The notes beneath the pieces are model-generated. The model did no database searches. It was given only the letters and a program-made list of their open reading frames with translations, and was not told the DNA's origin. The position numbers were made by a program, and so were the translations under genes. DNA of 64,000 nt from an uncultured delta proteobacterium (GTDB taxonomy: Bacteria; Desulfobacterota; Binatia; Binatales; Binataceae). This document shows positions 11,201-43,172 of the stretch, one piece after another. The stretch lies in the NCBI GenBank assembly GCA_963794325.1, contig CAWCDG010000004.1:1856001-1920000 (forward strand), given 5' to 3'. Within the stretch, counting starts at the first letter, position 1; every line of letters begins with the position of its first letter.

Positions 11201-11992
11201 TTAAGTTCCTTCCGGTGCCGGTAGCCCGAACACGCGCGCCGCGTTGGCGATTACTTGTGCGCCCAGGATTGTCGCATCGACGCGGCGGAGATTCGCCAGC
11301 ATTTCGAGCGTGCGAGTTACGTAGGCCGGCTCGTTGCGCTTGCCGCGATACGGCTCGGGCGCGAGATACGGCGCGTCGGTTTCGACCATCACGCGGTCGT
11401 CGGGGACGATCGACGCGGCCTCGCGAATCGGTGCGGAATTTTTGAACGTGATGATGCCGGAGAACGAGATGCAGAATCCGAGCGCGAGAAACTCGCGCGC
11501 CGCATCGGAGTCGCCGGTGAAACAGTGGATCACTCCGCCGCGCGGTGGAATGCCGGCTTCGCGCACTATCTCGATGAGCCGGCGCTCCGCGTCGCGGCAA
11601 TGAATCACGATTGGCAGGTCGAGTTCCGCGGCCAGCGCGAGATGCGCGCGCAGTGACGCTTCCTGCGCGTCCGGCGGCGAATGCATGTAATGGAAATCGA
11701 GTCCGCTCTCGCCGATGGCGACGACATTTTTCGACGCGGCGAGATCGCGCAACTGCGCGATTCGATCGGACGTGCAATCCTTCGCGTCATGTGGATGCAC
11801 GCCGACGGCGGCGAAGATATTTTCGTGACGCTCCGCGATTTCAACGGTTAGGCGGTCGTTCTCGATCGGTCCGATCGCCCCGACCGAAATGATTTGCGCG
11901 ACGCCGGCGCCGGATGCGCGTTCGATCACGGCTTCGACGTCGTCGCAGAACTTCGCATCCGCGAGATGACAGTGCGTATCGATGACCATCAA
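11201..11992 (-). CDS. tatD: TatD family DNase
   Basis: IDTHCHL, GVHPH, AIGESGLD, HCFTG, ETDAPYL. Confidence 0.95.
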   Translation of the reverse strand: MMVIDTHCHLADAKFCDDVEAVIERASGAGVAQIISVGAIGPIENDRLTVEIAERHENIFAAVGVHPHDAKDCTSDRIAQLRDLAASKNVVAIGESGLDFHYMHSPPDAQEASLRAHLALAAELDLPIVIHCRDAERRLIEIVREAGIPPRGGVIHCFTGDSDAAREFLALGFCISFSGIITFKNSAPIREAASIVPDDRVMVETDAPYLAPEPYRGKRNEPAYVTRTLEMLANLRRVDATILGAQVIANAARVFGLPAPEGT

Positions 11993-13536
11993 GGGAGCGC
12001 TTTCTTTTCGACGCGCGGGAACAGCGGGGTGGTTGGATTTACGTGATGCCCCGGCTTGATGCCTGCGCCATACGGTGCGCGCGCTTGCGCTTCATCGACG
12101 TTCAGCAGCGCGAGGATCTTTTTTGACGTGATCGGCATGAACGGCTCGAGATTGTCGGCGACGACGCGCAGCCCTTCGACCAGGTTGGCGAGGATTTGTG
12201 CCACACGAGGAAGCTGCGCGGGATCTTTCGCGAGCGTGAATGGCGACGTCGCAACAATATATTTGTTGGCGGCGTCGAGCGCTTGCCAGATGGCTTCCAG
12301 GGCGCGATTGAAGGCGAGCTCTTCGACCAGCGGCCCGACTCGCGACGGTATCGAGGCGAATGTTTCGCTGAGCGCGATGTCTAACGGGTCGCCGCCGGCG
12401 CCTGGCGTCGCGGTGATCGCGCCTTCGAAGTATCGAGCCGCCATCGTGAGCACGCGGCTGGTTAGGTTGCCTAAGTCGTTCGCGAGGTCCGAGTTGTAGC
12501 GATCGATCACGCGCTGTTCGGTAAAGTCGCCATCGAGGCCGTAGGTGTATTCACGCAGGAGGAAGAACCGCAGCACGTCAGGCCCGAGCGTTTGCTGATA
12601 GGCGACGGGATCCTGAATGGTGCCGGAGCTCTTCGACATCTTCGCGCCACCGAAATTCAGATATCCGTGAACATTCAGATGACGATAAAGCGGCAAACCG
12701 GCTGACAGCAGCATCGCGGGCCAGTAGGTCGCATGAGTCTTAAGGATGTCCTTGCCAATGAAGTGCTCTGTCACTGGTAGGATCAGTTTCAATGACTCGT
12801 CGTCAGTGTTAGGCAGCTCGCTTAGGTAGGCCCAGAAGGCATCGTACCAGACATAGGTCACGTACTTGTCGTCGAACGGCAGCTCGATACCCCAATCGAG
12901 GCGCGCCTTGGGTCGCGAGATGCATAGGTCTTCCAATGGCTCATCGAGCATCCGCAGAGCTTCGTTACGATAGCGCTCGGGTCGGATAAAATCGGGATTG
13001 TTCTTGAAGTTTGCGCGGATAGCTTCGCGATGCTTCTCGAGCTTCAGGAAGTAGTTTCCTTCCTTGATACGCTCGACGGGAGTGTTATGCACCGGGCATA
13101 TGTTGTTGGGTAGCAGTTCCTTCTCGGTATAGAAGCGCTCGCATCCGACGCAGTAGAGACCTTCATAGTCCTTGAAGTAGATGTCGCCGCATTCATAGGA
13201 GCGCGCAAGCATCTTCCGCACTAAGGCTTGGTGCGCAGGATCAGTGGTGCGCACGAAGTAGTCATAGCTCACATCGAGCGCGGCCATTCCTTCGCGAAAC
13301 ATCGCGCTGATTCGGTCGGCGAATTCCTTGGGCTTCAGGCCGGCGGCCTCAGCCGAGCGCTTGTTCTTGTCGCCGTGCTCGTCGGTGCCGGTGACGAACG
13401 TAACGTTCGATGCGCCGAGCTTGCGCCTCTGAAAACGGGCGAACGCGTCGGTCGCCAGCGCTTCGTAGGCATGGCCGACGTGAGGCGGGCCGTTGCTGTA
13501 GGCGATCGCGGTCGTGATGTGGATGCGGGTGTCCAT
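11989..13536 (-). CDS. metG: Methionine--tRNA ligase (short form, no C-terminal Trbp domain)
   Basis: HVGH, GTDEHG, YVWYDA, KMSKS; start MDTRIHITTA. Confidence 0.95.
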   Translation of the reverse strand: MDTRIHITTAIAYSNGPPHVGHAYEALATDAFARFQRRKLGASNVTFVTGTDEHGDKNKRSAEAAGLKPKEFADRISAMFREGMAALDVSYDYFVRTTDPAHQALVRKMLARSYECGDIYFKDYEGLYCVGCERFYTEKELLPNNICPVHNTPVERIKEGNYFLKLEKHREAIRANFKNNPDFIRPERYRNEALRMLDEPLEDLCISRPKARLDWGIELPFDDKYVTYVWYDAFWAYLSELPNTDDESLKLILPVTEHFIGKDILKTHATYWPAMLLSAGLPLYRHLNVHGYLNFGGAKMSKSSGTIQDPVAYQQTLGPDVLRFFLLREYTYGLDGDFTEQRVIDRYNSDLANDLGNLTSRVLTMAARYFEGAITATPGAGGDPLDIALSETFASIPSRVGPLVEELAFNRALEAIWQALDAANKYIVATSPFTLAKDPAQLPRVAQILANLVEGLRVVADNLEPFMPITSKKILALLNVDEAQARAPYGAGIKPGHHVNPTTPLFPRVEKKALP

Positions 13537-13600
13537 CAGGAGATCGAGAATAGCTTGAGTGTCAGTCTCGTGCGACTGGGGCGCCTGACTGACCCTCGGA

Positions 13601-13700
13601 TTGACTGTGTAGCGGAGCAATGGAAAAATCGTCGAAACTTTTTTCAGGGCCGATTTCACCGGCCGAGAATTTGCCAACGCGGTTGTACGCGGCGCGCGGT
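13601..13700 (+). promoter_or_regulatory. Orphan promoter + degenerate leader unit of the array (no CDS)
   Basis: TTGACT-17-AAAAAT with extended TG; TTTGCCAACGCGGTTGTACGC at 13670; no SD or ORF follows. Confidence 0.55.
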
Positions 13701-13838
13701 GCGGCGTTAAGAGTAAGCTGGCACCGAAATCGTCGTCATATTCCTGAATGCGCGAGAAGAAGGTTGCGGGCGGGGTGTCAACGACACTCCGTCCGCGTTA
13801 TTTCGCGATGCATATGACGCTTTATCTACCCAAATGAA

Positions 13839-13937
13839 TTGACTGTAGCTTCACATAGTGCGAGATTAGGCGCGCCTGAATTAGTTGACTGAGTGAAATT
13901 TGCCAACGCGGCTGTACACGCCGCGGGGAGGGGTCCT
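13839..13937 (+). promoter_or_regulatory. Array unit 1 promoter and structured leader
   Basis: TTGACT-17-GAGATT; TTTGCCAA-CGCGGC...GCCGCG-GGGAGGGG. Confidence 0.65.
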
Positions 13938-15641
13938 ATGGCAGGTTCGAATCAGCGCTTCACAATCGCGGCGTTTGCCTTGCCGCTTCTGTTTCTTGCG
14001 ATGTCCGGGATGGCGCGCGCCACCAACATTATTGTCAATACCACCGACGGTGGCAGCGACTCTTTCCCGCTGTGCACGCTGCCCGACGCAGTCACCGCGC
14101 ATAACATGCAGATGGCGACGAACGGCTGCGCCGCGGGAACCGGTCACGACACGATACTGTTCGGCGTCACCGGAAAAATCTTTATCCAGGATTCGCTCGA
14201 AATCATGAACGGTACCCTGACCATCCAGGGACCTATCTTCGGCTGCTCGGGGCTGGGGCCATGCGGCATTACCATCGACGGTGGCGGCCACGTTCAGATA
14301 ATCAGAGCGGACTCGGGCACCACGGTCTTCCTGACTACCCTGACGTTTAACCATGGATTCGCCATCACCTCTCCAATCATACCCGACACCGGAGGCGGGG
14401 CCGTATACGCAGATGGCTCCGATTTGGAGATCAACGATTGCCTCTTCGTGAACAATAAAGCGAAGGGCGCAGCGCTCCCTACAGCACAGGTTTCCGGTCC
14501 CATAGTTCCCACGGTTGGTGGTTCGGGCGGGGCTATCTACGCAAATTCCGGTAACGTCGTCATCACGAACAGCACCTTTGCGAATAATACTGCCGTGTCG
14601 TCGACTCTACCCATATCACCGTTTGTTTTGATTTCCGAAAGCGAAGGTGGCGCAATCTATGACACCGACGCCAAGATGTACATTACCAACTGCACCATCG
14701 CGGATAACACTGCGCAGGAAGGTGGCGGCTTTGCCCAGGAGGTCTCGTCTCCCCTCCCCGGCATCAAAGGTACGATCTTTCAGAGCAACACGGTCGGCAA
14801 TTGTTCAGGATTAGCTGCCGGTGACATCGGCTACAATATATCGAGCGACGATAGCTGCCCGTTCCCCCTGATTACGAGCTCTACGATGACCGACTCGCTG
14901 TTGAAGCCGCTCGCCAACAACGGCGGACCGACTGATACCTTCGCACTTGATCCGATGAGCCCGGCACTCGGCCGGATTCCGGTCGCCAACTGCACCGATC
15001 AGCAGGCGATGCCGCAGCCGCTGGGAACTGACCAACGGCTCTTTGGCCGGCCTGATCCCTACTATCCTCCCGGGTGCGACAGCGGCGCCTACGAACTCGG
15101 CGCACAACCCCCTTACGTGCTGAACAGTGACCGCGTGCAGATAGCCCGCAAGCCTACCACTACAAATTCCGATCAGGTCAACATGGGCTTGACCTTCACC
15201 GCGAATGGCGATGACTCCTGCGACCTGGGTCCGCAGGGCGATGAGGACGCGCTTAATTTTGGCGTCGGTGTCGCGCTGGTTGAGGGTACCTGCGCCAACC
15301 TTCCCAACAGCGGATTGTTTGTGAACCTATTCCCGTTTGTGGTGCATACGGTCAACAAGCAGCAATACGGAACCCTGTTCCAGACCATTGGGCCCGAGCA
15401 GATCTCGGCCAGGATGGTAGCGTTTCCGCCACAGCCGGGGGTATGCGGCGAGTGGACGCTGAATCTCGAGGTGTCAGGTCTCAACACTCCGGCCTTGGGA
15501 CTCGGCGGCAGCAATCCGTTTGCGATATTGATCACCGACTTCGTTGACGCCGAGGGATGCTTCGACATCAACAACGCAATCGTCGGCAATCAGATTCCGA
15601 TACCTGGGCACGGCGTGCGACGCGGGGTGCATCGGCGGTAG
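13938..15641 (+). CDS. Secreted beta-helix / choice-of-anchor-Q-like protein, paralog 1
   Basis: Signal peptide (ARA); CTLPDA (CSLREA-like); GGAIY/FxxN repeats; LANNGGPT...DQR...CDSGAYE; PGHGVRR tail. Confidence 0.85.
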   Translation: MAGSNQRFTIAAFALPLLFLAMSGMARATNIIVNTTDGGSDSFPLCTLPDAVTAHNMQMATNGCAAGTGHDTILFGVTGKIFIQDSLEIMNGTLTIQGPIFGCSGLGPCGITIDGGGHVQIIRADSGTTVFLTTLTFNHGFAITSPIIPDTGGGAVYADGSDLEINDCLFVNNKAKGAALPTAQVSGPIVPTVGGSGGAIYANSGNVVITNSTFANNTAVSSTLPISPFVLISESEGGAIYDTDAKMYITNCTIADNTAQEGGGFAQEVSSPLPGIKGTIFQSNTVGNCSGLAAGDIGYNISSDDSCPFPLITSSTMTDSLLKPLANNGGPTDTFALDPMSPALGRIPVANCTDQQAMPQPLGTDQRLFGRPDPYYPPGCDSGAYELGAQPPYVLNSDRVQIARKPTTTNSDQVNMGLTFTANGDDSCDLGPQGDEDALNFGVGVALVEGTCANLPNSGLFVNLFPFVVHTVNKQQYGTLFQTIGPEQISARMVAFPPQPGVCGEWTLNLEVSGLNTPALGLGGSNPFAILITDFVDAEGCFDINNAIVGNQIPIPGHGVRRGVHRR

Positions 15642-15705
15642 GAACGCTGATGCCAGGTAAAAGGCTGATGCTGTTCCGTCTGTCTATTACAGTCGGTTTG
15701 CGACG

Positions 15706-15797
15706 TTGACACTAGCTCTGTCTGATGAAACAGTGTCTGGCCTAATTAACTGACGATATTTGCCAACGCGGCTATCATGCGCTGCGGGGAGGGGTCC
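15706..15797 (+). promoter_or_regulatory. Array unit 2 promoter and structured leader
   Basis: TTGACA-17-AACAGT; same leader motif at 15759. Confidence 0.65.
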
Positions 15798-17474
15798 ATG
15801 GCAATTTCGGTTCGGCGCTTTATGGTCGCGGCAGTTGTATTGCCGCTTTTTCTGCTGATGATATCGGGGCGGGCGCGCGCCGATCTTATCTTCGTCACTA
15901 CGCTCGATGGCAACAGCGATCCAGGGGCCTGCACGCTGCCCGATGCAATCGGATCGGCCAACACCGGCATACCCGAAGGCGGCTGCGTTATTTTACCGGT
16001 ATCCGGAGCTGATCAGATAGTCATCGGTCTAACCGGCACGATTTTCGTTGCCGCTGGCCGGCTTCCGCTGACCATTTCCGACACGGCTCTGGAGATCACC
16101 ACTTACGCCGACGGTCCGGTTGTGATCGACGCCGGTCTCAATGAGGTGGTGCCATCCGGGGGGATAATGTCGGTCACCTCACTCAACAAGTTTCTCAAGC
16201 TCACCAATCTGACGTTCGCGCACGGAAACTCCGAATTCGGCGGCGCCTTATACTCAGATACTGGCGGAGATGTGGATATCAAAGACTGCCTGTTTGTGAA
16301 CAATCAAACTACCCCTCAGAATAGTGTCTTAAGCGCGGGTGGGGCAATCTACGCGCATGCTGGCAGGATGGAGATCACCAACAGCACCTTTTACGAGAAT
16401 GACGCGCTGAAATACACCGCCACCATCGGTGGCGCTATCTTTGTCGACACTGCAGCGACGCTGAAGCTCACCAACTCGACCTTCGAGCATAACTACGCAC
16501 AAACCGGTAGTGCCATATACAATCAGGGAACCGCCGATGTTAAAGGTAACATCTTCGCCGACCACCTCGAGAAGGCGGGCACTGGCGTAGTGTCGCCTCT
16601 CGGCAACTGCGCCGGACTCACTGCCACGCCGGTGACCGACGAAAATTACAACGTCTCGGTCGACAATAGCTGCGGCTTTACCGCCGCTTCGAGCGTGAGC
16701 AACCAAACTGCTGCTCAGGTTGATCTGGATCCCGCAGGACTGGCGAACAATGGCGGGCCGTCGTTTACCGTCGCGATTCAACCCGGCAGTGTCGCGCTCG
16801 CCCGTATTCCGGTCGCGGATTGCACCGAACAGGATTCACACATGACTCCGCTGGGAACCGACCAGCGGCTCTTTGCCCGGCCCGATCCCCTCAACCTCTC
16901 CGCCTGCGACAGCGGCGCGTTCGAGTTTGGAGCGCTAGGGCCTTACACGCTGAATAGTCACCGGGTGCAGATAGCGCGAAACTCGAATATTGCAAATAGC
17001 GATATGGTCAACATCGGGATGACTTTCACGGCGAACGGCGATCCCGACTGCGACCTGGGAGTCGGTGGTGACGAAGACGCGCTGAATTATGGCGTCGGCA
17101 TCGGGCTCTTTCAGGGTACCTGCGCCTCGCTTCCATACGACGGACTGTTCCTGGTGCTGAGTCCTTTCGTGGTGCATACGGTTAATATGGAGCAATACGG
17201 AACTCTGTATCAGACGTTTGGACCGGTGACAGTCTCGGCCAGGATGGTAGCGTTCCCGCCGCAGATGGGGGTATGCGGCGAATGGACGCTGAACCTCGAA
17301 GTCGGTGGCCTCAATACCAAAAGCAGCAGCGTAAATCTTGGAGGCAGCAATCCGTTTGCGTTGCTAATCAGCGACCAGTACGACGTCGAGAGTTGCTTCG
17401 ACATCACCAATGCAATCGTCGGCAATCAGATCCCGACGCCGGGCCATGGCGTGAGGCGCGGGGTGCGGCGCTAG
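15798..17474 (+). CDS. Secreted beta-helix / choice-of-anchor-Q-like protein, paralog 2
   Basis: Same architecture as paralog 1; ATG follows GGGAGGGG. Confidence 0.85.
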   Translation: MAISVRRFMVAAVVLPLFLLMISGRARADLIFVTTLDGNSDPGACTLPDAIGSANTGIPEGGCVILPVSGADQIVIGLTGTIFVAAGRLPLTISDTALEITTYADGPVVIDAGLNEVVPSGGIMSVTSLNKFLKLTNLTFAHGNSEFGGALYSDTGGDVDIKDCLFVNNQTTPQNSVLSAGGAIYAHAGRMEITNSTFYENDALKYTATIGGAIFVDTAATLKLTNSTFEHNYAQTGSAIYNQGTADVKGNIFADHLEKAGTGVVSPLGNCAGLTATPVTDENYNVSVDNSCGFTAASSVSNQTAAQVDLDPAGLANNGGPSFTVAIQPGSVALARIPVADCTEQDSHMTPLGTDQRLFARPDPLNLSACDSGAFEFGALGPYTLNSHRVQIARNSNIANSDMVNIGMTFTANGDPDCDLGVGGDEDALNYGVGIGLFQGTCASLPYDGLFLVLSPFVVHTVNMEQYGTLYQTFGPVTVSARMVAFPPQMGVCGEWTLNLEVGGLNTKSSSVNLGGSNPFALLISDQYDVESCFDITNAIVGNQIPTPGHGVRRGVRR

Positions 17475-17505
17475 GAACGGCCTGAGTTCAGAACTGGTTC
17501 GATTT

Positions 17506-17546
17506 GCGGGCGAGATGCCAATAACGTCTCGCCCGCTCTATTTTTT
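17506..17546 (+). terminator. Intrinsic terminator, repeated after paralogs 2-4
   Basis: GCGGGCGAGA...TCTCGCCCGC hairpin + T-tract. Confidence 0.75.
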
Positions 17547-17578
17547 ACCTGGATGGTTGTTCCTTCTACTTTAAAGAA

Positions 17579-17681
17579 TTGACAGTGGGTCGCCGTAGTG
17601 GGAGACTGCGCGAGACACGCATCTAGCAATCTACTGACGATATTTGCCAACGCGGCCATCATGCGCCGCGGGGAGGGGTCC
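17579..17681 (+). promoter_or_regulatory. Array unit 3 promoter and structured leader
   Basis: TTGACA-17-GAGACT; leader motif at 17643. Confidence 0.65.
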
Positions 17682-19364
17682 ATGGCAATTTCGGATCGGC
17701 GCTTTATGGTTGCGGCACTTGTACTGCCGCTTTTTCTCCTCGTGATATCAGGGCGCGCGCGCGCCGATCTTATCTTCGTCGATACGCTCGATGGCAACAG
17801 CGATCCAGGGGCCTGCACGCTGCCCGATGCAATCGGATCGGCCAACAGCGCCATACCGGAAGGTGGCTGTTTCATTATCCCGGCACCCGGAGCTGATCAG
17901 ATACTAATCGGCCTGACCGGCACGATCTCCGTGGACGCTGCCCGGCTTCCGCTGATTATTTCCGACGAGGCTCTGGAGATCACCACTTACGGCGATGGTC
18001 CGGTTGTGATCAACGGCGCTGCCAAGGCGGGGGTCGACGGCGGGACGATGGTTGTTGAGCCGGACAACAAGTTTCTCAAGCTCACCCTGCTGACCTTCGC
18101 GAACGGGTTCGCCGAATACGGCGGCGCCATATTCTCACAGTCCGGCGGAGATGTGGATATTAAGGAATGCCTCTTCGAGAACAACACTGCGGAGTATTCC
18201 AGCGGTGGCGAGGGTGGGGCAGTCTTCGAGCAAGCCGGCAGGATGGAGATCACCAACAGCACCTTTTTTGGGAATGACGCCCTGAAATACTCCGGCACCG
18301 AGGGTGGCGCGGTCTATGTCAACCCATCCACGACCCTGAAGCTCACTAATTCCACTTTCGAGCATAACTACGCCAAATCGGGTAGTGCCGTGTTCAATAA
18401 CGACGGAACTGTCGACGCTAAGGGCAACATCTTCGCGGACCACCTTGAGGGTGCGGGTACCGGTATAGTGTCGCCGCTCGGCAACTGTGCCGGAACTGCT
18501 TCACCACCTGTTACCGACGAGAACTACAACGTCTCAGTCGACAATAGCTGCGGCTTCACCGCCGCTTCGAGCAAGAGCAACCAAACTGCTGCTGAGGTTG
18601 ATCTGGATCCCGCAGGATTGGCGAACAATGGCGGGCCGTCGTTTACCGTCGCGCTTCACGACACCAGCAGCGTCGCGTACGGCCTGATTCCGGTCGCTAG
18701 CTGCACCGAACAGGATTCACACATGACTCCGCTGGGAACCGACCAGCGGCTCTTTGCCCGGCCCGATGCCGGTGATCCTGATTTCTGCGACAGCGGCGCA
18801 TACGAGCTTGGAGCGCTAGGAGCCTACACGCTGGAAAGTCACAGGGTGCAGATAGCGCGAAACCCGGCTACCGGAAATAGCGATAAGGTCAACATAGGGA
18901 TGACCTTCGTCGCGAACGGCGACCCCGACTGCGACCTGGGTATGTATGGTGATGAAGACGCGCTGAACTATGGCGTCGGTATCGGGCTCTTTCAGGGCAC
19001 CTGCGCCTCGCTTCCGTATAACGGACTGTTCCTGGTCCTGAGTCCTTTCGTAGTGCATACGGTTAATAAGGAGCAATACGGAACTCTGTTCCAAACCAAT
19101 GGAACGGTGACGGTCTCTGCCAGGATGGTCTCGCTGTTCGCGTCGCCGCCACCTCCGGGAATATGCGGCGCATGGACGCTGAACCTCGAGGTTGCCGGAC
19201 TCAATACCAATAGCGCCAGCGTAAATCTGCCGGGCACCAATCCGTTTGCGCTGCTAATCAGCGACGGCTCCGACGCCGAGAGTTGCTTCGACATCACCAA
19301 TGCAATCGTCGGCAATCAGATACCCACGCCGGGCCATGGCGTGAGGCGCGTCCGGCGGCGCTAG
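17682..19364 (+). CDS. Secreted beta-helix / choice-of-anchor-Q-like protein, paralog 3
   Basis: Same architecture as paralog 1. Confidence 0.85.
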   Translation: MAISDRRFMVAALVLPLFLLVISGRARADLIFVDTLDGNSDPGACTLPDAIGSANSAIPEGGCFIIPAPGADQILIGLTGTISVDAARLPLIISDEALEITTYGDGPVVINGAAKAGVDGGTMVVEPDNKFLKLTLLTFANGFAEYGGAIFSQSGGDVDIKECLFENNTAEYSSGGEGGAVFEQAGRMEITNSTFFGNDALKYSGTEGGAVYVNPSTTLKLTNSTFEHNYAKSGSAVFNNDGTVDAKGNIFADHLEGAGTGIVSPLGNCAGTASPPVTDENYNVSVDNSCGFTAASSKSNQTAAEVDLDPAGLANNGGPSFTVALHDTSSVAYGLIPVASCTEQDSHMTPLGTDQRLFARPDAGDPDFCDSGAYELGALGAYTLESHRVQIARNPATGNSDKVNIGMTFVANGDPDCDLGMYGDEDALNYGVGIGLFQGTCASLPYNGLFLVLSPFVVHTVNKEQYGTLFQTNGTVTVSARMVSLFASPPPPGICGAWTLNLEVAGLNTNSASVNLPGTNPFALLISDGSDAESCFDITNAIVGNQIPTPGHGVRRVRRR

Positions 19365-19394
19365 GAACGGCCTGAGCTCATAACTGGCTCAATT

Positions 19395-19433
19395 GCGGGC
19401 GAGATGCCTATGGCGTCTCGCCCGCTCCATTTT
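19395..19433 (+). terminator. Intrinsic terminator (array unit 3)
   Basis: GCGGGCGAGATGCC-tat-GGCGTCTCGCCCGC + T-rich tail. Confidence 0.7.
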
Positions 19434-19446
19434 CTACCTTAAAGAA

Positions 19447-19546
19447 TTGACAGTGGGTCGCCGTAGTGGGAGACTGCGCGCAACACGCTTCTACCAATTT
19501 ACTGATAATTTGCCAACGCGGCTGTACGCGCCGCGGGGAGGGGTCC
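19447..19546 (+). promoter_or_regulatory. Array unit 4 promoter and structured leader
   Basis: TTGACA-17-GAGACT identical to unit 3; leader motif at 19509. Confidence 0.65.
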
Positions 19547-21292
19547 ATGGCAGATCGGAATCGGCGGTATACGGTTGCGGCAATTGCGCTGCCGTTTTTT
19601 TTAATGGTGATGTCGGGACTGGCGCGCGCCAATCTTATCTTTGTCACTTCTCTCGATGGCGACACCGATGCAGGCGCATGCACCCTGCCCGATGCAATCG
19701 GATCGGCCAACACCGGGACCCCTGAGGGCGGCTGTTTTATTTTATTGGCACCCGGAGCTGATCAGATAGTCGTCGCCCTTACCGGTACGATCTTCGTGAA
19801 CGCTGCCCGGCTTCCGCTGACTATTTCCGACGAGGTTCTGGAGATCAGCACCTTCGGCGACGGCCCGGTTGTGATCGACGGCGGCTCACATGGCATTCCA
19901 CAGGGTGGGATAATGTATGTCTCATCGCTGAACAAGTTTCTCAAGCTGAGCAACCTGACGTTCGCGCACGGCCTCGCCGAACAGGGCGGCGCCATATTCT
20001 CAGAAACTGGCGGAGATGTGGATATTAAGGACGACCTTTTCGTGGACAATACCGCGGAGGTTACTCCCGCGCTCTGCGTTATCCCGATCTTAGGTGGCGA
20101 GGGTGGGGCGATTTTCGCCGCTGCTGGCAGGATGGAGGTCACCAACAGCACCTTTTACGAGAATGATGCGCTGCAATACAACGAAACTTACGGTGGCGCC
20201 ATCTACGTCGCGGGCGAACCGTTCTGCTCCCCGGCCGGGGATGCCGCGTGTGTCGGTGTCATCGATGGCATCTTGGGTGCGAGCTTGAAGCTCACCAACG
20301 CCACCTTCGAGCATAACTACGCAAAATTCGGCAGCGCCATCTACAATGCGGGCACCGCCGACGTTAAAGGCACAATCTTCGCGGACCACCTTGATAAGGC
20401 AGGCACTGGTGTTGTGTCGCCGGTCGGCAACTGCGCCGGGCTCAATTCACCGCCGGTGACCGACGAGAACTACAACGTCTCAGTCGATAACAGCTGCGCC
20501 TTTACCGCCGCTTCGAGCAAGAACAACCAAACTGCTGCTCAGGTTGATCTCGATCCCCTGGGATTGCAGAACAATGGCGGGCCGTCATTTACCGTCGCGC
20601 TTCACGACACCAGCAGCGTCGCGTACGGTCTGATTCCGGTCGCAGATTGCACCGAACAGGATTCACACATGACTCCGCTGGGAACCGACCAGCGGCTCTT
20701 TGGGCGTCCCGATTCCGGTGATCCCGATGCCTGCGACAGCGGCGCATACGAGCTTGGGGCGTTAGGGGCTTACACGCTAAATAGTGACAGGGTGCAGGTA
20801 GCGCGAAAGCCGACTGCCGCAAATAGCGACATGGTCAACATCGGGATGACCTTCACCGCGAACGGCGACCCGGATTGCGACCTCGACGAAGACGCGCTGA
20901 ATTCTGGCGTCAATATCGAGCTCTTCCAGGGCACCTGCGCCTCGCTTCCGCTTAACGGACTGTTGGTGGAACTGAATCCTTTCGTCGTGCATACGGTTAA
21001 TAAGGAGCAATACGGAACTTTCTACCAAACGTATGGACCGGTGACAGTCTCGGCCAGGATGGTAGCGTTTCCGCCACAGATGGGGGTATGCGGCGAATGG
21101 ACGCTGAACCTCGAAGTCGGTGGCCTTAATACCAAGAGCCCGAACGTAAATCTGCCGGGCACCAATCCGTTTGCGCTGATAATCTTCGACTCGGCCGACG
21201 ATGGCCAGAGCTGCTTTGACATCAACAATGCGATCGTCGGCAATCAGATCCCGATACCGGGCCATGGCGTAAGGCGCGGGGTGCGACGATAG
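19547..21292 (+). CDS. Secreted beta-helix / choice-of-anchor-Q-like protein, paralog 4
   Basis: Same architecture plus two Cys-containing loop insertions. Confidence 0.85.
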   Translation: MADRNRRYTVAAIALPFFLMVMSGLARANLIFVTSLDGDTDAGACTLPDAIGSANTGTPEGGCFILLAPGADQIVVALTGTIFVNAARLPLTISDEVLEISTFGDGPVVIDGGSHGIPQGGIMYVSSLNKFLKLSNLTFAHGLAEQGGAIFSETGGDVDIKDDLFVDNTAEVTPALCVIPILGGEGGAIFAAAGRMEVTNSTFYENDALQYNETYGGAIYVAGEPFCSPAGDAACVGVIDGILGASLKLTNATFEHNYAKFGSAIYNAGTADVKGTIFADHLDKAGTGVVSPVGNCAGLNSPPVTDENYNVSVDNSCAFTAASSKNNQTAAQVDLDPLGLQNNGGPSFTVALHDTSSVAYGLIPVADCTEQDSHMTPLGTDQRLFGRPDSGDPDACDSGAYELGALGAYTLNSDRVQVARKPTAANSDMVNIGMTFTANGDPDCDLDEDALNSGVNIELFQGTCASLPLNGLLVELNPFVVHTVNKEQYGTFYQTYGPVTVSARMVAFPPQMGVCGEWTLNLEVGGLNTKSPNVNLPGTNPFALIIFDSADDGQSCFDINNAIVGNQIPIPGHGVRRGVRR

Positions 21293-21322
21293 GAACGGCC
21301 TGAGTTCATAACTGGCTCGACT

Positions 21323-21361
21323 GCGGGCGGGACGCCAATAACGTCTCGCCCGCGCTATTTT
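21323..21361 (+). terminator. Intrinsic terminator (array unit 4)
   Basis: GCGGGCGGGACG...CGTCTCGCCCGC + TATTTT. Confidence 0.65.
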
Positions 21362-21383
21362 GAGACGCGGCGGTTGTGGCGAT

Positions 21384-22229
21384 CTACTGGGGGCGCGACG
21401 CGACCAGATCTTCGAGGGTTACTTCGACGACGCCGCCGTCTTCTTCGCGCTGAATCAGGACGGTCTGCTTGAGGATATTCTGGCGGACCACCTTGCCGTC
21501 GCCCTTAACGCATTGCACGCGCTTGCCGAGGTTCGGTAGTGCTCGCTTGAGTTCGACGTAAGTGGCGTACTCGTAGCGCAGGCAGCACTTCAGGCGCCCG
21601 CACATCCCGGCCAGCCGCGACGGATTGAGCGCGAGGCCTTGCTCACGCGCCATCTTGACCGTGACCGCCTCGAAGTCGCGCAGCCAGCTCGAGCAGCATA
21701 GCTCGCGTCCGCACGGACCCAGCCCGCCAGTGACCTTGGTCTCATCGCGCGCGCCAATCTGTTTCATCTCGACCCGCACGCGCAGCGTGTTGGCGAGATC
21801 GCGCACCAGGTCGCGGAAATCGACGCGCCCCTCGGCGACGAAATAAAAGGTGACCTTGCGCCCGTCAAATGTGTAGTCGGCGTTAACCAGCTTCATCTGG
21901 ATGCGCCGCTCGCGGATCCGCTCGATACACATGCGGCGCGCGTTCGCCTCCCGCGTGAGGTTTTCCTTTTCGAGGTAAAAGTCGTTGTCGCTCGCGATCC
22001 GGATGATCGGACGCAACTGCGAAAGATCGATCGTCTGCGCGGGTTCATGCGGCTCGATCTCGACGGTGCCGACGCGCGCGCCCGCCTCGCTCTCGACCAG
22101 GACGCGCTCACCGCGCCGCAGCGGCCGGTCGCCGGCCAGAAAATTATACAGATGACCAGTCTGCTGCAGACTGACCGCAATAATCTTCGGCAGCGACGGC
22201 GCGCCTTCAAATGGATCGATATCTGACAC
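21384..22229 (-). CDS. ricT: PSP1/RicT (YaaT) family protein
   Basis: RVDFRDLV, GPCGRELCC, GMCGRLKCCL. Confidence 0.92.
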   Translation of the reverse strand: MSDIDPFEGAPSLPKIIAVSLQQTGHLYNFLAGDRPLRRGERVLVESEAGARVGTVEIEPHEPAQTIDLSQLRPIIRIASDNDFYLEKENLTREANARRMCIERIRERRIQMKLVNADYTFDGRKVTFYFVAEGRVDFRDLVRDLANTLRVRVEMKQIGARDETKVTGGLGPCGRELCCSSWLRDFEAVTVKMAREQGLALNPSRLAGMCGRLKCCLRYEYATYVELKRALPNLGKRVQCVKGDGKVVRQNILKQTVLIQREEDGGVVEVTLEDLVASRPQ

Positions 22230-37960: not shown

Positions 37961-38023
37961 AAACAAAGAGAGTCCGCTTCGCTACATTCCAACCATCGGC
38001 GGTTTCTGGATAGAATCGGGGGC

Positions 38024-38959
38024 ATGCCGGTTAGTGTTGCGCAATCGCCGCTTGAGTTGATTGGGAATACTCCTGTTGTTCGGCTTAATCGGATTCCGGG
38101 GAAAGATGATGCCGAGATTTGGGCCAAGCTCGAGAATTTCAATCCCGGGGGGAGTGTTAAAGATCGGATTTGTCTTGCGATGATCGAGGCGGCTGAGAAG
38201 TCCGGCAAGCTGAAACCCGGCGACACGATTGTCGAGCCTACCTCGGGGAATACCGGGATTGGGCTGGCGCTGGTGGCTGCGGTTAAGGGTTACAAGCTTA
38301 TCCTGACGATGCCCGATACTATGAGCGAGGAGCGGCGGTCGCTGCTGGTTGCTTACGGGGCGAAGCTGGTGCTGACGCCGGATACACGCGGGATGCATGG
38401 CGCGATCGCGAAGGCCGAGGAACTATGCCGCGAGAATCCCGGCTACTTTATGCCGCAGCAGTTCAGCAATAGCGCGAATCCCGATATCCATTATCGATGC
38501 ACCGGGCCGGAGCTGCTCCAGCAATTCAAGCGTATCGACGCATTCGTGGCCGGCGTCGGGACCGGCGGGACAATCACGGGCGCGGGGCATTATTTGCGAG
38601 AGCATCTCGATAACAAGGTGCTGATCGTCGCGGTCGAGCCGAAGAACTCGCCCGTGCTGTCGGGCGGCGAGCCGGGGTTCCATAAGATACAGGGGATTGG
38701 CGCGGGGTTCGTGCCGACCAATCTCGACACCAAAGTTTATGATGAGATAATTCCGGTCAGCGACGAGGATGCGACGCTGTTCTCGCGGCGGCTCGCGCGC
38801 GAGGAAGGGCTGCTGGTCGGGATTTCGTCGGGGGCGCATTGCTGCGCGGCGTTGCAGGTGGCGCGGAGGCTCGGGAAGGGCAATGTCGTGGTGGTGGTTT
38901 TTTGCGATACCGGGGAGCGGTATTTGACGACGGATCTTTTTCAGGCTGAGGGTATTTAG
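38024..38959 (+). CDS. cysK: Cysteine synthase A
   Basis: [31 protein letters not shown]. Confidence 0.95.
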
Positions 38960-39016
38960 CTGTGGAGGGCAGGGAGAGCTCGGCCAAAAGACTTAAGTGT
39001 TGTGCGTCGGCAAGCA

Positions 39017-39079
39017 TTGCACCTCTCCTGCAGCGCTCCTTCGGCGCGCTGCGACCTCCCCTCGGACAAGGGGAGGTTA
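39017..39079. repeat. Solo copy of the ACCTCCCC-N8-GGGGAGGT repeat
   Basis: Matches the arms of 41758-41996. Confidence 0.75.
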
Positions 39080-39120
39080 TTCGAGCGAGCAACCGCCAGT
39101 TATGCAGAGGTTTGAGGTAG

Positions 39121-39966
39121 GTGAATACATCCGAAGCTCTTAACGCGAAACTCGAGCGGATGCGGGCGGGTTTTGCGCCGGGGCGCAGTGTTATCGTTGC
39201 GTTTTCGGGTGGGGTTGATTCTACCTTTGTTTTGAAAGTTGCGTTTGAGATCCTGAGGGATTCGGTGATTGCGTTGACTACCACTTCGCCGACGATGCCT
39301 GATGAGGATCGGGAGTCGGCGCTTTCGATGGCGCGGCTGATAGGGGCTCGCCACTTAGTCGTCGAGTCCAATGAGCTCGAGATTCCCGGGTACGCGGCGA
39401 ATCCGATCAATCGATGCTACCTGTGCAAGCACAATCTGTTCACGGTTTGCGAGGCGAAGGCGGCCGAGCTGGGTATCGACGAGATTGTCGATGGGCTCAA
39501 TCTCGACGACCTGCATGATTATCGGCCCGGGATGCAGGCGGCCAGCGAGAAGCGCGTGCGGCATCCGCTGGTCGAGGCTGAGATGACCAAGGCTGACGTG
39601 CGTGAGTTGTCGCGCGCGATGGGATTGCCGACGTGGGATCGGGCCGCGTCGCCATGCCTGTCGTCGCGCTTTCCGTATGGGACCGAGATAACGCCGGACG
39701 GGCTCAGGAAAGTTGCGGCCGGCGAGAAGCTGCTCCATTCGATGGGGTTTGCGATTGCGCGCGTGCGGTACCATGGCGAGGTCGCGCGGCTCGAGCTGGA
39801 GCAAAGTGAGATCGCGCGGGTGTTCGAGCCTGCGACGCGCGAGACTATCGATCGCGAATTCAGAAAGATCGGGTTTCGGTTCGTGGCGATCGATCTGAAG
39901 GGCTTCCGATCGGGATCGCTCAACGAAGGCCTGATTGCGAATAATCCGTTGCGCAATCAAGCCTGA
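39121..39966 (+). CDS. larE: ATP-dependent sulfur transferase LarE
   Basis: AFSGGVDS, RCYLCK, DYRPG, SPCLSSRFPYG, GFRSGS. Confidence 0.92.
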   Translation: MNTSEALNAKLERMRAGFAPGRSVIVAFSGGVDSTFVLKVAFEILRDSVIALTTTSPTMPDEDRESALSMARLIGARHLVVESNELEIPGYAANPINRCYLCKHNLFTVCEAKAAELGIDEIVDGLNLDDLHDYRPGMQAASEKRVRHPLVEAEMTKADVRELSRAMGLPTWDRAASPCLSSRFPYGTEITPDGLRKVAAGEKLLHSMGFAIARVRYHGEVARLELEQSEIARVFEPATRETIDREFRKIGFRFVAIDLKGFRSGSLNEGLIANNPLRNQA

Positions 39967-39970
39967 GCTT

Positions 39971-41626
39971 ATGGCGGATAGCACAATCGATGAATCGTCG
40001 CGGCTGGGTGGCCGGTGGGTGTCGATTTTTGAATCGACCAATCTGCGCGAACCGCCGAGCGTTCTGAGGGCCGCCGCCTTCGCCGCGGTCACGACCGCAT
40101 TACTCTACACACTGGCGGGAATGGATTCGGGATTGTGGCTATGCGCGCTGTTCGCGCCGCTGCCGATTCTCGCGATAGCACCTGAAATCCGGCTGGAGAC
40201 CGGGGCCGAGCTGGCGTGTGCGGCGTTCCTGATCGGGAACCTGGCCGCATGGGGCGGCGAGAGTTTCGCGGTTCCGATAGTCACGATGCTCGCGTCGCAT
40301 ATCGCGGGCGCGATCGTGTTTGCGACCTTCGTTGCGTGCGCGGCCGAGGCGACGCGGCGCTGGTCGGGGGTGCTGGCGGCGCTGGTGTTCCCGACCTTTG
40401 AAACCGCCTTCTACTACTCGCTCTCGATGCAATCACCGCACGGCACGTGGGGCAGCCCGGCATACACGCAAGTCGATTTTATTCCGCTGCTGCAGACGGC
40501 ATCGTGGATCGGAATGTGCGGCGTGATGTTTATCATGACGCTGTTGCCGTCGGGGCTGGCGGTCGCGTGGTACCGGCGGCGCTGGAACATGGAGTGGAAG
40601 AATCCCGCGATCATGGCGTTCAGCGTTTTCGCGCTGGCGGTCTTGTTTGGATCGACTCGGGTGGTGCTGACGCCGCGGACTCCGGTGGTGCGGGTCGGAA
40701 TGGTTGCGATCGAGCGGCTGATACCGGAGTCGGAGTCGACCGATCCAACCGACGCGGCGGATATCATGGCGCGTTACGCGAAAATGGTGCGTCAGGCGGC
40801 GGCCAGCGGCGCGCAAATCGTCGTGATGCCGGAGAAGATCATCGGCGTGGCGCCGAGCTACGAATGGGACGTGGTGCTCGGACTCCAGCAAATCGCAAAG
40901 ATGTCGCATGTATGGCTGGTAGTCGGGCTCAACCAGATTGGGCGATCGCCGAAGAGAAATATCGCGGTGGTATTCGCTCCCGACGGCACGCTGGCGGCGA
41001 GCTACGCCAAGCATCATCTGATCCCCAGTCTCGAATGGGACTACAAGGCGGGCACCAAGCCGGCGATTTTCGACGCGCCGTGGGGACGCACCGCGGTGCT
41101 GATTTCGCAGGACCTGGATTTTCCGGAGACCGCGCGCGAGCTCGCGGCGTATGACGTGCGGATGGTGGTCGCGCCCGCATCGGATTGGCGGGGATCGGAA
41201 GTGATTCATCAGCGGATGGCGGTAGTGCGCGGAGTCGAATCGGGATTCTCGCTAGCACGCGCGGCGCGCGGTGGGATCCTGTCGGCGAATGATTCGCGCG
41301 GCCGGCTGATCGCGGCGCGCGCGCCGGTGCATGGCGAAGATACGATGGCGGTTACCGACCTGCCGATTGGCGCGGGTCGAACCGTCTATTCGCGCACCGA
41401 CGATTGGTTCGGGCGGCTATGCGTGCTGTTCACGATCCTGCTGATGCTGCGGCTGGCGGTGAGTGTCGGGTACTCGATGCGAACGCGGCGGCGCGGCGCT
41501 GCGAAGGGGATCAAGCGACCGAGCGGGGTGGTATCGGTTGATTTGAATCAGACGGAACCGGAAGCGGAGAAAGTCGAGGAGCCGGCGCAGGATATCTATC
41601 GGCCACCGCCGCGGCCGCGCGAGTAG
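39971..41626 (+). CDS. Membrane nitrilase-superfamily protein (apolipoprotein N-acyltransferase-like)
   Basis: Multiple TMs, PHGTWGS.AYTQ, VVMPEK, YAKHHL; nucleophile position reads ISQD. Confidence 0.8.
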   Translation: MADSTIDESSRLGGRWVSIFESTNLREPPSVLRAAAFAAVTTALLYTLAGMDSGLWLCALFAPLPILAIAPEIRLETGAELACAAFLIGNLAAWGGESFAVPIVTMLASHIAGAIVFATFVACAAEATRRWSGVLAALVFPTFETAFYYSLSMQSPHGTWGSPAYTQVDFIPLLQTASWIGMCGVMFIMTLLPSGLAVAWYRRRWNMEWKNPAIMAFSVFALAVLFGSTRVVLTPRTPVVRVGMVAIERLIPESESTDPTDAADIMARYAKMVRQAAASGAQIVVMPEKIIGVAPSYEWDVVLGLQQIAKMSHVWLVVGLNQIGRSPKRNIAVVFAPDGTLAASYAKHHLIPSLEWDYKAGTKPAIFDAPWGRTAVLISQDLDFPETARELAAYDVRMVVAPASDWRGSEVIHQRMAVVRGVESGFSLARAARGGILSANDSRGRLIAARAPVHGEDTMAVTDLPIGAGRTVYSRTDDWFGRLCVLFTILLMLRLAVSVGYSMRTRRRGAAKGIKRPSGVVSVDLNQTEPEAEKVEEPAQDIYRPPPRPRE

Positions 41627-41675
41627 GTGTAGAAGAACCTAGCCCCAATCAAGAATAATCGCCTGCGCGGCGGGC

Positions 41676-41724
41676 GGCAGGGGTGACCCCTGCACCCAGT
41701 GAAAGAAAAATAAAGATGCGGGAC
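41676..41724 (+). repeat. Composite repeat core (copy 3)
   Basis: GGCAGGGGTGACCCCTGCACCCAGTGAAA...AAAGATGCGGGAC. Confidence 0.8.
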
Positions 41725-41757
41725 TTCGTCCCTGTTAGAAGTTTGTGGGGCGGATGG

Positions 41758-41996
41758 GATCTTAACCTCCCCTTGTCCGAGGGGAGGTCGGCGCGCGCCG
41801 AAGGAGTGCGACGGGTGGGGTGCAACGCCGGCCGTCGCCACCGCGTCCGTTGTGCTGCTGTCGAGCGGCGAACGCGTGCCTATGCGTTGAGATTAAACGA
41901 GTCGGGGTTGGTGGGATTTCGCACGTTGCACCTCTCCCGGCGACACCGCTGCGCGGCTTTCGCCGACCTCCCCTCGGACAAGGGGAGGTTAGGATC
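41758..41996. mobile_element. MITE/REPIN-like element with a 31-bp perfect inverted repeat
   Basis: 41763-41793 is the exact reverse complement of 41961-41991; non-coding interior. Confidence 0.65.
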
Positions 41997-42075
41997 TGAG
42001 GTCGCGATTGATCGTGCTTCGCGAAACCTCTAAATGTGCGGCGCGTGATTTAATCCTGAAAAAAGGGAATTGGTG

Positions 42076-43068
42076 ATGTTGAAGTTTGAGGATATTGATC
42101 TCGATCGGATGGTTGAAGAAGTTCTGGCTGGAAAAGAAATCGCGCGCGAGACGGCGGCGGCGATTCTGAATTGTCCCGATGAGCGGCTGGGGGATTTGCT
42201 TGGCGCGACGCGCACGGTGCGTGAGGCTGCGTTCGGGCGGCGGGTGAAGATATGCATGCTGCGCAATGCGCAGAGCGGCATCTGTCCCGAGGATTGCTCG
42301 TACTGCTCGCAATCGAAGATCTCGAAGGCCGAGATTCCGGTGTACAAGATGCAGAGCGTCGAGAAGTTGATCGAGGGCGCGCGAATCGCGGTCGAGAGCG
42401 GGGCGCGCCGTTACTGCATGGTGTGCAGCATGCGCGGGCCGGCGCGGCAGGACGTCGAGCATCTCGGGGAGGCCTGCGATCGAATCCGCGCTGAGCTGCC
42501 GGGGCTCGAGCTGTGCCTGTCGATTGGCCTGATGAATCGTGAGCAGGCGGATGAGCTCAAGAGCGCGGGCGCTGGATGGATAAATCACAACCTCAACACG
42601 AGCCGGCGGTTCTATCCGCAGATTTGCACGACGCATACGTATGACGATCGGATCGAGACGATCGAGTACGTGCGCGCGGCGGGACTGTCGACGTGCTCGG
42701 GCGGAATTATCGGGATGGGCGAGACTGACGAGGACATTTTGGACCTCGCGTACTCGACGCGGCGGCTCGCGATCGATTCGGTGCCGCTGAATTTTCTGCA
42801 TCCTATAAAAGGCACGCCGCTCGAGGCGAAGCGCGCGCTGACGCCGGAGAAATGCCTGAAGGCGGCGTGCCTGTTTCGTTTGCTGAATCCGCGCAGTGAG
42901 GTTCGCGCGGCGGGCGGCCGGGAATTGAACGTCGGGGCGCGGCAGGCGGATTTGTTCAATGCGGTGAATTCGATTTTCGTCAACGGGTATCTGACGACTG
43001 CGGGATGGGATTGGACGCGGACGCGGGAGTTGATCGAGCGGGCGGGGTATGAGGCGGAGGTGGGGTGA
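42076..43068 (+). CDS. bioB: Biotin synthase
   Basis: CPEDCSYCSQS, NHNLNT, CSGGIIGMGE, NSIF..GYLTT. Confidence 0.95.
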   Translation: MLKFEDIDLDRMVEEVLAGKEIARETAAAILNCPDERLGDLLGATRTVREAAFGRRVKICMLRNAQSGICPEDCSYCSQSKISKAEIPVYKMQSVEKLIEGARIAVESGARRYCMVCSMRGPARQDVEHLGEACDRIRAELPGLELCLSIGLMNREQADELKSAGAGWINHNLNTSRRFYPQICTTHTYDDRIETIEYVRAAGLSTCSGGIIGMGETDEDILDLAYSTRRLAIDSVPLNFLHPIKGTPLEAKRALTPEKCLKAACLFRLLNPRSEVRAAGGRELNVGARQADLFNAVNSIFVNGYLTTAGWDWTRTRELIERAGYEAEVG

Positions 43069-43100
43069 AGGAGCGGTGCGGGCGGCGCTGCGATGCGAGC

Positions 43101-43144
43101 AACCTAACCCCTAACCCCTTCCCATAGTGGGAAGGGGAATCGGA
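43101..43144. repeat. AACCTAACCCCTAACCCCTTCCC...GGGAAGGGG repeat
   Basis: Second copy of 37917-37959; lies between convergent genes. Confidence 0.75.
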
Positions 43145-43172
43145 AACGAAAGTCATCTCGGGGCTCGCTTTG

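Follow-up and report, generated by a model that had tools for sequence, protein, structure and literature searches.

A tandem array of beta-helix protein genes with a conserved promoter and leader in Candidatus Binatus

The array, its promoters, and its leader

We analyzed 64,000 nucleotides of an uncultured delta proteobacterium (assembly GCA_963794325.1, contig CAWCDG010000004.1, positions 1,856,001 to 1,920,000; the whole stretch is called the window, and all positions are those of the window), which contain an array of four paralogous open reading frames (ORFs). The source organism is a Candidatus Binatus (Binataceae) and, according to metagenome run labels, a soil bacterium. Candidatus Binatus and the Binatota form a widespread uncultured soil lineage. 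The four ORFs lie on the plus strand, encode 567, 558, 560, and 581 amino acids, and start at 13938, 15798, 17682, and 19547 (span 13938–21292), exactly where a first-pass annotation of this DNA had placed them. The proteins of units 2–4 are 54–56% identical to that of unit 1; compared with unit 2, unit 3 shows 77% and unit 4 70–80% identity. The array is probably the outcome of a tandem birth-and-death expansion of an exported family of beta-helix binding proteins that resembles Rhombotarget A (RbtA) and Pmp proteins and is so far restricted to Candidatus Binatus.

What is repeated is the whole predicted transcription unit and not merely the coding sequence (CDS), as the first-pass annotation had proposed: each unit comprises a promoter, a leader, and a CDS, to which units 2–4 add a tail and a terminator. 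Alignment shows that the tail (TAGGAACGGCCTGAG/GGAACGGCCTGAG) lies downstream of units 2, 3, and 4 and is followed by a GC-rich hairpin of 12–14 bp and a T-run. Unit 1 possesses neither the common tail nor the hairpin, and no terminator-like site was found between 15641 and 15706.

We gathered 38 distinct leader-bearing units from the source genome and its relatives. The promoter pattern, which consists of TTGACA (with at most one mismatch), a 14–16-nt spacer, TGn, and a −10-like hexamer, is present in 35 of them, including all four units of the window, at a nearly constant distance from the leader (mode 34 nt). The 5′ untranslated region (UTR) would therefore be ∼65–70 nt long. The features of the array and its flanks are as follows.

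13839–13867, plus strand: unit 1 promoter, TTGACT-N-TGC-GAGATT (pattern match, sequence read)
13897–13952, plus strand: unit 1 leader with hairpin, GGGGAGGGG Shine–Dalgarno sequence, and start codon (covariance model R1, E 1.6e-20)
13938–15641, plus strand: unit 1 CDS, 567 amino acids, older subfamily (ORF, family models, placed apart from units 2–4 in the tree)
15706–15734, plus strand: unit 2 promoter (pattern match)
15757–15812, plus strand: unit 2 leader (R1, E 1.5e-17)
15798–17474, plus strand: unit 2 CDS, 558 amino acids, the protein chosen for modeling (ORF, family models, AF2)
17475–17536, plus strand: unit 2 tail GGAACGGCCTGAG and hairpin terminator at 17506–17536 (alignment, terminator scan)
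17579–17607, plus strand: unit 3 promoter, TTGACA-N-TGG-GAGACT (pattern match)
17641–17696, plus strand: unit 3 leader (R1, E 1.3e-18)
17682–19364, plus strand: unit 3 CDS, 560 amino acids (ORF, family models, alignment)
19365–19425, plus strand: unit 3 tail and hairpin terminator at 19395–19425 (alignment, terminator scan)
19447–19475, plus strand: unit 4 promoter (pattern match)
19507–19561, plus strand: unit 4 leader (R1, E 6.9e-23)
19547–21292, plus strand: unit 4 CDS, 581 amino acids, whose helix bears an additional insert flanked by Cys (ORF, family models, alignment)
21293–21354, plus strand: unit 4 tail and hairpin (21322–21354), separated by 30 nt from the 3′ end of the PSP1-domain gene, which is convergent (alignment, terminator scan)
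11989–13536, minus strand: metG flank, with a likely start near 13536 (ORF as listed to 13677; named from its translation; 81–90% identical across relatives from that start)
21384–22229, minus strand: PSP1-domain protein gene, then a DNA polymerase III delta′ (holB-like) gene (named from translations; PSP1 in 5/5 related genomes searched)

A conserved leader of 55 nt, ATTTGCCAACGCGGC..GCCGCGGGGAGGGGTCC(T)ATGG, precedes all four units. The last ∼40 nt of the UTR are nearly invariant and contain UUUGCCAAC, the hairpin CGCGGC-loop-GCCGCG, the Shine–Dalgarno sequence GGGGAGGGG, UCC, and AUGGCAG. The 5′ part of the UTR differs by subfamily, and the hairpin loop varies freely. The leader stays nearly identical across paralogs that share 45–55% protein identity. 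RNAalifold predicts two helices, namely the hairpin and an outer helix UUUGCCA/UGGCAG over the start codon, in which 98.8% of cells pair.

A covariance model of the leader (R1), which includes 15 coding nucleotides, was used to search the source genome and its relatives for the combination of leader and gene. In the source genome, R1 matches seven sites, all directly upstream of family genes (four in the array, two at 95–98 kb, and one at 1.93 Mb of contig C4), with no others at E ≤ 1. The element occurs in 25 of 47 genomes of the genus, with 1–9 copies each. Among 151 genomes of the class, it is clear in two only, both of the genus, and marginal in three others, of other families (E 6–8e-4); in family f1, 1 of 17 genomes besides the source genome (G000) carries it, namely G059 of the same genus. 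Rfam gave no match at E ≤ 1 on either strand across 13500–21500. We also considered a genome-wide repeat of the REP/MITE type and rejected it, as hairpins of the exact type are confined to the array and the leader to family genes.

The leader had been described as conserved and structured. It is strongly conserved in sequence and its hairpin is credible, with 5–7 bp folding in 38/38 copies, three double changes from G-C to A-U, and an inner-stem extension whose stability exceeds that of at least 90% of loop shuffles in 11 of the 38. The pairing UUUGCCA/UGGCAG at the start codon is only a prediction of the RNA model. The fold is compatible with the sequences, but covariation is weak, with mostly one-sided changes (double changes at 2/11 pairs, a level matched by 72/500 shuffles), and single-sequence fold z-scores reach only −1.0 to −2.0. 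The covariation score was matched by 6/500 shuffles, and within a 106-nt context the leader adopts a different minimum-energy fold.

The weak covariation, the unremarkable z-scores, and the context-dependent fold would all be expected if the conservation had no regulatory meaning and merely reflected a very strong ribosome-binding region and N-terminal codons, homogenized by gene conversion. Gene conversion does happen in the array, and the coding nucleotides within R1 fit this explanation as well. It does not easily account for the near invariance of the leader between loci that are not linked (95–98 kb, 1.87 Mb, and 1.93 Mb of contig C4) and likewise between species whose proteins are 45–55% identical at dS ∼1, nor for the free variation of the adjacent part of the 5′ UTR and of the hairpin loop, while the hairpin itself is retained. 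We regard a purely nonregulatory leader as possible but somewhat unlikely.

At least 10 of the 38 leader-bearing units, all in relatives, have an ORF of <220 amino acids from the conserved ATG, and the gene continues in another frame (L013:9343, L014:5552, L020:2259, L021:3898, L026:585 and 4421, L030:1265, L038:2267, L040:2386, and L041:2461). These units could be pseudogenes or assembly indel errors. In the array itself, unit 4 has eight consecutive T within the part that encodes the signal peptide (19593–19600), which is not a shared feature because the other units have T5 or less.

The array is bordered by the convergent PSP1-domain gene (followed by holB-like and tmk-like genes) on one side and by a divergent metG-tatD pair on the other, all named from their translations. 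Elsewhere in the window, the GC skew is 0.14–0.19 over 6 kb at 38001–44000 versus ∼0 in the remainder, and a motif scan of the minus strand at ∼54400–54600 found near-repeats rich in GTCGC/GGTGGC that may encode a low-complexity segment rich in Thr, Ala, and Val.

Domain architecture of the encoded proteins

The four proteins display the succession of elements that had been read from the sequence at the outset. The CTLPDA cap motif (C46–A51) is invariant in 4/4, and the GGA(I/V)/FxxN repeats are recognized by the Pfam Chlam_PMP repeat model PF02415 in all units (30.8, 29.0, 21.6, and 25.9 bits versus a cut-off of 20.6); the Pfam Beta_helix model scores above its cut-off in three. The choice-of-anchor Q segment matches NCBIfam NF041518 in 4/4 (44.5, 37.0, 26.7, and 27.5 bits versus a cut-off of 25). 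Both the variable stretch quoted after LFxxN and the Cys-flanked insert of unit 4 are present in the alignment. The shared C-terminal domain (∼170 amino acids, with conserved Cys) is the best conserved part of the four proteins and belongs to no Pfam or NCBIfam family.

We modeled the protein of unit 2 with AF2 on the basis of 57 homologues (mean pLDDT 84.4, pTM 0.79). The model begins with an N-terminal helix (residues 2–24), which we read as a signal peptide (RR, hydrophobic core, ARA). A cap helix follows CTLPDA and leads into a beta-helix that extends to approximately residue 255. Then come the strand-poor, Cys-rich choice-of-anchor Q region (∼260–380), a beta-sandwich (381–548), and a disordered basic tail, GHGVRRGVRR, with pLDDT below 50 at residues 550–558. 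Modeled alone, the C-terminal domain assumes an Ig-like sandwich with a pLDDT of 90.3. The previously noted signal peptide is thus a putative one, read from the sequence and from the modeled helix.

The C-terminal domain is rare: 93 of 1.84 billion cluster representatives match it at E ≤ 1e-3, nearly always up to the C-terminal end, and some of the matches are short proteins made of a signal-like N terminus and this domain. Four Cys are conserved in ≥90% of the aligned sequences, which fits an oxidizing, extracytoplasmic location. Stand-alone genes for a signal-like N terminus plus the domain include G000:C4:1492007-1492561 (L019), P0169–P0172, P0192, and P0193; the one in the source genome has no leader and is recognized by no family model of Pfam or NCBIfam. 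In the source genome, the ending GHGVRR..RR is found only on the seven full-length family proteins. The idea that this basic tail is a general sorting signal was discarded, the other 33 of 40 regex matches being arginine-rich off-frame ORFs. Leader-bearing relatives in G009 carry a choice-of-anchor D/ASH Ig domain in place of the array C-domain, and therefore the C-terminal module is interchangeable.

Neither the Pfam scan nor the AF2 model revealed an autotransporter barrel or another anchor in the four proteins. A membrane anchor is thus unsupported, and surface display can only be surmised.

When the unit 2 model was compared with the Protein Data Bank (PDB) by Foldseek, the top four matches were to the beta-helix of Rhombotarget A (9cdv/9cdu; E 1.8e-8 to 1.4e-6, TM 0.34–0.45, prob 1.00). 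A sequence-profile search of the PDB returned only a weak repeat match, to the Tetrahymena protein 7w5z (E 6.9e-8). For the C-domain, the best match among 48,161 chains was archaellum FlaF/FlaG with a Z of 6.8, which lies within the stated background of 7–8, so that we claim no fold relative for it; an ESM Atlas search with the C-domain gave no usable match.

Lyases and tailspikes also occur in the Foldseek list, with far weaker scores than RbtA. They raise the question whether the proteins are secreted polysaccharide-active enzymes, in which case the paralogs would broaden the range of soil or cell-wall glycans used as substrates and the Ig-like C-domain would bind carbohydrate or act as a spacer. 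The matches include PL6 alginate lyases (7dmk, prob 1.00, E 1.4e-2; 7o77) as well as pectate lyase Pel9A, chondroitinase B, and a large number of tailspike depolymerases, and the structural neighbors of the C-domain include Ig-like domains of GH2 enzymes (Z 5–6); the soil habitat given by the run labels would suit such a role. However, no lyase or hydrolase family was found in Pfam or NCBIfam at E ≤ 1, the enzyme matches have TM values of 0.13–0.31 and rank far below RbtA, and the Z values of the C-domain are at background level. An enzymatic function is therefore unlikely.

Gain, loss, and exchange of units

The family comprises 523 proteins at E ≤ 1e-3 among 8000 candidates scored, many of them on common contigs. 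Named members are called “choice-of-anchor Q domain-containing protein,” and nearly all come from Candidatus Binatus. Copy number at the junction between the PSP1-domain gene and metG, a point raised by the first-pass annotation, is not fixed and ranges from 0 to 6 units in related species.

G018 (174 bp) and G006 (60 bp): empty junction
G012 (1055 bp), G002 (817 bp), and G009 (1915 bp): unrelated DNA
G001: 1 unit
G003 and G007: 2 units
G016: 3 units
G011 and G049: 4 units
G060: 6 units

G024 (unpublished) has at least one unit at the site and, at the edge of a contig, the end of another; its data enter the count of units there, one row each of leader alignment A4 and model R1, one tree row, and tallies such as that of the genus. 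Judged by eye, the unrelated DNA contains a membrane protein-like ORF in G012 (L044) and a glutathione S-transferase-like ORF in G002 (L048); G009 (L046) has 1.9 kb of other DNA. The junction thus seems to be a general insertion hot spot. At the empty site of G018 (L045:940-1113), a hairpin after the PSP1-domain gene resembles, again by eye, the reverse complement of the 21322–21354 hairpin. The PSP1 terminator may have given rise to the array terminator, which would then have been duplicated together with the units.

Loss is visible within the array itself. A fifth, metG-proximal unit (“unit 0”) has been reduced to a promoter, half a leader, the end of a CDS, and a hairpin at 13598–13800.

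13598–13700, plus strand: unit 0 promoter TTGACT..AAAAAT (13601–13629) and 5′ half of the leader from ∼13667 (promoter-like site, alignment)
13689–13800, plus strand: unit 0 last codons, tail, and hairpin with T-run at 13765–13797 (alignment, hairpin listing)

The segment 13537–13700 aligns at 75–77% with the metG-proximal unit that is intact in L013, L026, and L028, over its promoter and leader, and 13689–13778 aligns at 72% over 95 nt with the first unit of L013, namely with its 3′ end and the hairpin that follows. The CDS in between, ∼1.5 kb in relatives, is wholly lost. If active, unit 0 would yield a short noncoding RNA of ∼150–200 nt in the metG upstream region.

In a quick maximum-likelihood tree of 28 rows, units 2, 3, and 4 cluster as a clade (SH-aLRT 100) whose sister is a single gene found in G011 and G049, whereas unit 1 falls into an older subfamily. 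The tree left out 9 of 37 ORFs (five that were unrelated or partial, three that extended into the sequence upstream, and one with masked residues). The dS is 0.35–0.41 among units 2–4 and ∼1.0 relative to unit 1. The closest pair changes along the units, and runs of shared polymorphisms link units 2 and 4 (19153–19199) and units 3 and 4 (17573–17611), each reached in 0/2000 permutations; for units 2 and 3, p = 0.035. That the shared-site runs exceed all 2000 permutations points to an exchange of segments between units. Units 2–4 are a lineage-specific triplication with mosaic, gene conversion-like tracts.

The stretch 13601–21400 is present in four DNA soil-metagenome runs of one study, with fragmentary contig coverage, and in no RNA run listed. 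Two single-contig back-joints of depth ∼5 were seen there, from 20644 to 16818 (X3) and from 21047 to 15403 (X2). They could reflect arrays that have recombined or short reads that were mis-joined at repeats, and we do not use them as support.

Variation had been expected to concentrate in the loops of the helix, which holds for indels but not for substitutions. Mean column identity among units 2–4 is 83–84% in the helix, 91–93% in the choice-of-anchor Q region, and 85–92% in the C-domain. The larger indels lie mostly in or beside helix turns. With DSSP state as a crude proxy for exposure, variable helix columns are as frequent outside strands as in them (46/113 versus 48/120; Fisher p = 1.0 for units 2–4, and p = 0.66 for units 1–4). 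The proteins therefore diverge domain by domain and change length in turns, rather than showing a pattern of substitutions focused on loops. Pairwise dN/dS of 0.32–0.42 does not support positive selection, although pN approaches pS in alignment columns 91–210 for some pairs.

A variable surface coat of which one member is expressed at a time, as suggested by the first-pass annotation, would make the array a switching repertoire whose variants help to evade phages, predators, or antibodies. Several observations are in keeping with it: the self-contained units with Pmp-type repeats, the divergence that peaks in the helix and for some pairs nears a pN/pS of 1 there, the large indels in helix turns, the gene conversion-like tracts, and the difference in copy number between species. 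However, no tandem or simple-sequence repeats (score ≥ 30) were found in 13500–21450, and no inverted repeats are common to the units and flank their promoters, the sole promoter-flanking pair being 73% complementary and specific to unit 4. The array contains no promoterless silent copies. The same complete promoter and leader stand before each unit, so that an expression site with silent cassettes is absent, and because neither repeat tract, invertible promoter, nor silent cassette was found, expression of one unit at a time is unsupported. Together with the overall dN/dS and the missing membrane anchor, this renders a switching repertoire very unlikely. The uniform promoter and leader instead suggest common control, and the most likely consequence is that all copies are expressed equally strongly or coordinately, not exclusively.

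Proposed model and comparison with known systems

Under the birth-and-death model that we favor, each unit would be autonomous, with a sigma-70 type promoter (TTGACA and extended −10), a leader, and a CDS, and units 2–4 would in addition end in a tail and an intrinsic terminator. The leader would present a conserved hairpin, a very strong Shine–Dalgarno sequence (GGGGAGGGG), and the start codon within the last ∼40 nt of the UTR. The protein, presumably exported by Sec, would combine an N-terminal cap and a right-handed Pmp-repeat/Rhombotarget A beta-helix with the choice-of-anchor Q segment, the Ig-like sandwich, and the basic tail. The array may grow and shrink by unequal recombination between units, segments have been exchanged among them, and the metG-proximal unit has lost its whole CDS. 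The helix faces would diverge while conservation holds for the leader, the cap, the choice-of-anchor Q segment, and the C-domain, and the products would serve as co-expressed extracytoplasmic binding proteins, perhaps adhesin-like or glycan-binding.

Several points weigh against this model, in addition to the weak covariation and fold scores of the leader given above. Sec export and the extracellular location of the proteins are deduced from sequence, and neither an anchor nor a secretion partner dedicated to them was identified. It is the fold class that suggests the binding role, and the same Foldseek list includes, further down, alginate lyase 7dmk (PL6), pectate lyase 1ru4, and phage tailspikes, all beta-helix enzymes. 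Units 1 and 2 could be co-transcribed because unit 1 has no recognizable terminator. Finally, the tree comes from a quick search rather than a completed careful one.

A more far-reaching version would treat the leader as a new, genus-restricted cis-acting RNA that gates translation of the repertoire through the UUUGCCA/UGGCAG pairing beside the hairpin and the Shine–Dalgarno sequence, in response to a trans factor or a physical cue, with the remnant at 13598–13800 transcribed into a small decoy RNA that contains half of the element. We consider this speculative and hold its probability to be low. If true, a cis-acting RNA combined with recombination between units would give a free-living soil bacterium a coordinately switched, rapidly diversifying exoprotein repertoire.

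The value of the array is descriptive and as a lead for experiments; the findings overturn no current idea. The array is a clean natural example of the duplication, loss, and exchange of whole transcription units at a defined hot spot (0–6 units). Its leader, family-specific and outside Rfam, is a candidate translational control element that is open to testing, and RbtA/Pmp-like proteins from a nonpathogen could help to show what the beta-helix class binds. A term search of a Binatota genomic survey (PMC8262859) found no mention of adhesins, beta-helix proteins, or secretion systems.

Compared with loci of phase or antigenic variation, the array lacks a repeat tract, an invertible promoter, and an expression site for silent cassettes. 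The leader resembles cis-regulatory motifs in the 5′ UTRs of paralogous gene families and RNA thermometers that occlude the Shine–Dalgarno sequence or the AUG in being a short element of one family with a hairpin by the Shine–Dalgarno sequence and a predicted start-codon pairing. Unlike Rfam-type leader motifs, it has no Rfam match and covaries weakly.

With choice-of-anchor Q proteins, the array proteins share the NF041518 match and the public annotation name. The name “choice-of-anchor” expresses the idea of an interchangeable C terminus, which the relatives in G009 with their different C-terminal Ig domain fit. However, NF041518 covers ∼58 residues only and is silent on the C-domain, the leader, and the tandem layout. 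A term search of the literature found no mention of choice-of-anchor Q, and none of the choice-of-anchor papers listed is on the array family. The designation as an undescribed system made in the first-pass annotation does not hold, since the family already bears this generic name and no partner genes are involved.

Chlamydial Pmp proteins are type V autotransporters that form paralog families of 9–21 genes. The array proteins resemble them in the GGA(I/L/V)/FxxN motifs, the right-handed beta-helix, and the organization as a lineage-specific, multi-copy family that is partly tandem. In contrast to Pmp proteins, the four units possess no Pmp middle domain or autotransporter beta-barrel at E ≤ 1, their C-terminal 170 amino acids are modeled as a soluble Ig-like sandwich, and the host is a free-living soil bacterium.

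The best structural match to the beta-helix is Rhombotarget A (TIGR04212). RbtA itself is described as a newly recognized cell-surface protein of Acinetobacter baumannii (PMC12643943). Both proteins combine an N-terminal signal sequence with a Pmp-like beta-helix, and a weak sequence match extends over ∼85–130 residues (E 1e-7 to 2e-4), with no match for unit 1. Whereas the Rhombotarget A equivalog requires 295 bits, the best array protein scores 30.7. The array proteins also lack the transmembrane tail of Rhombotarget A and instead feature the choice-of-anchor Q segment, the Ig-like domain, and a basic tail; their C terminus (..IPxPGHGVRRGVRR) has no hydrophobic stretch and matches no GlyGly-CTERM model of NCBIfam at E ≤ 1. 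The array is thus neither a Pmp autotransporter, nor an RbtA equivalog, nor a multi-gene system. Its new elements are a leader specific to the family, a previously undescribed C-domain that ends in a basic tail, and a record of units gained, lost, and exchanged at one chromosomal site.

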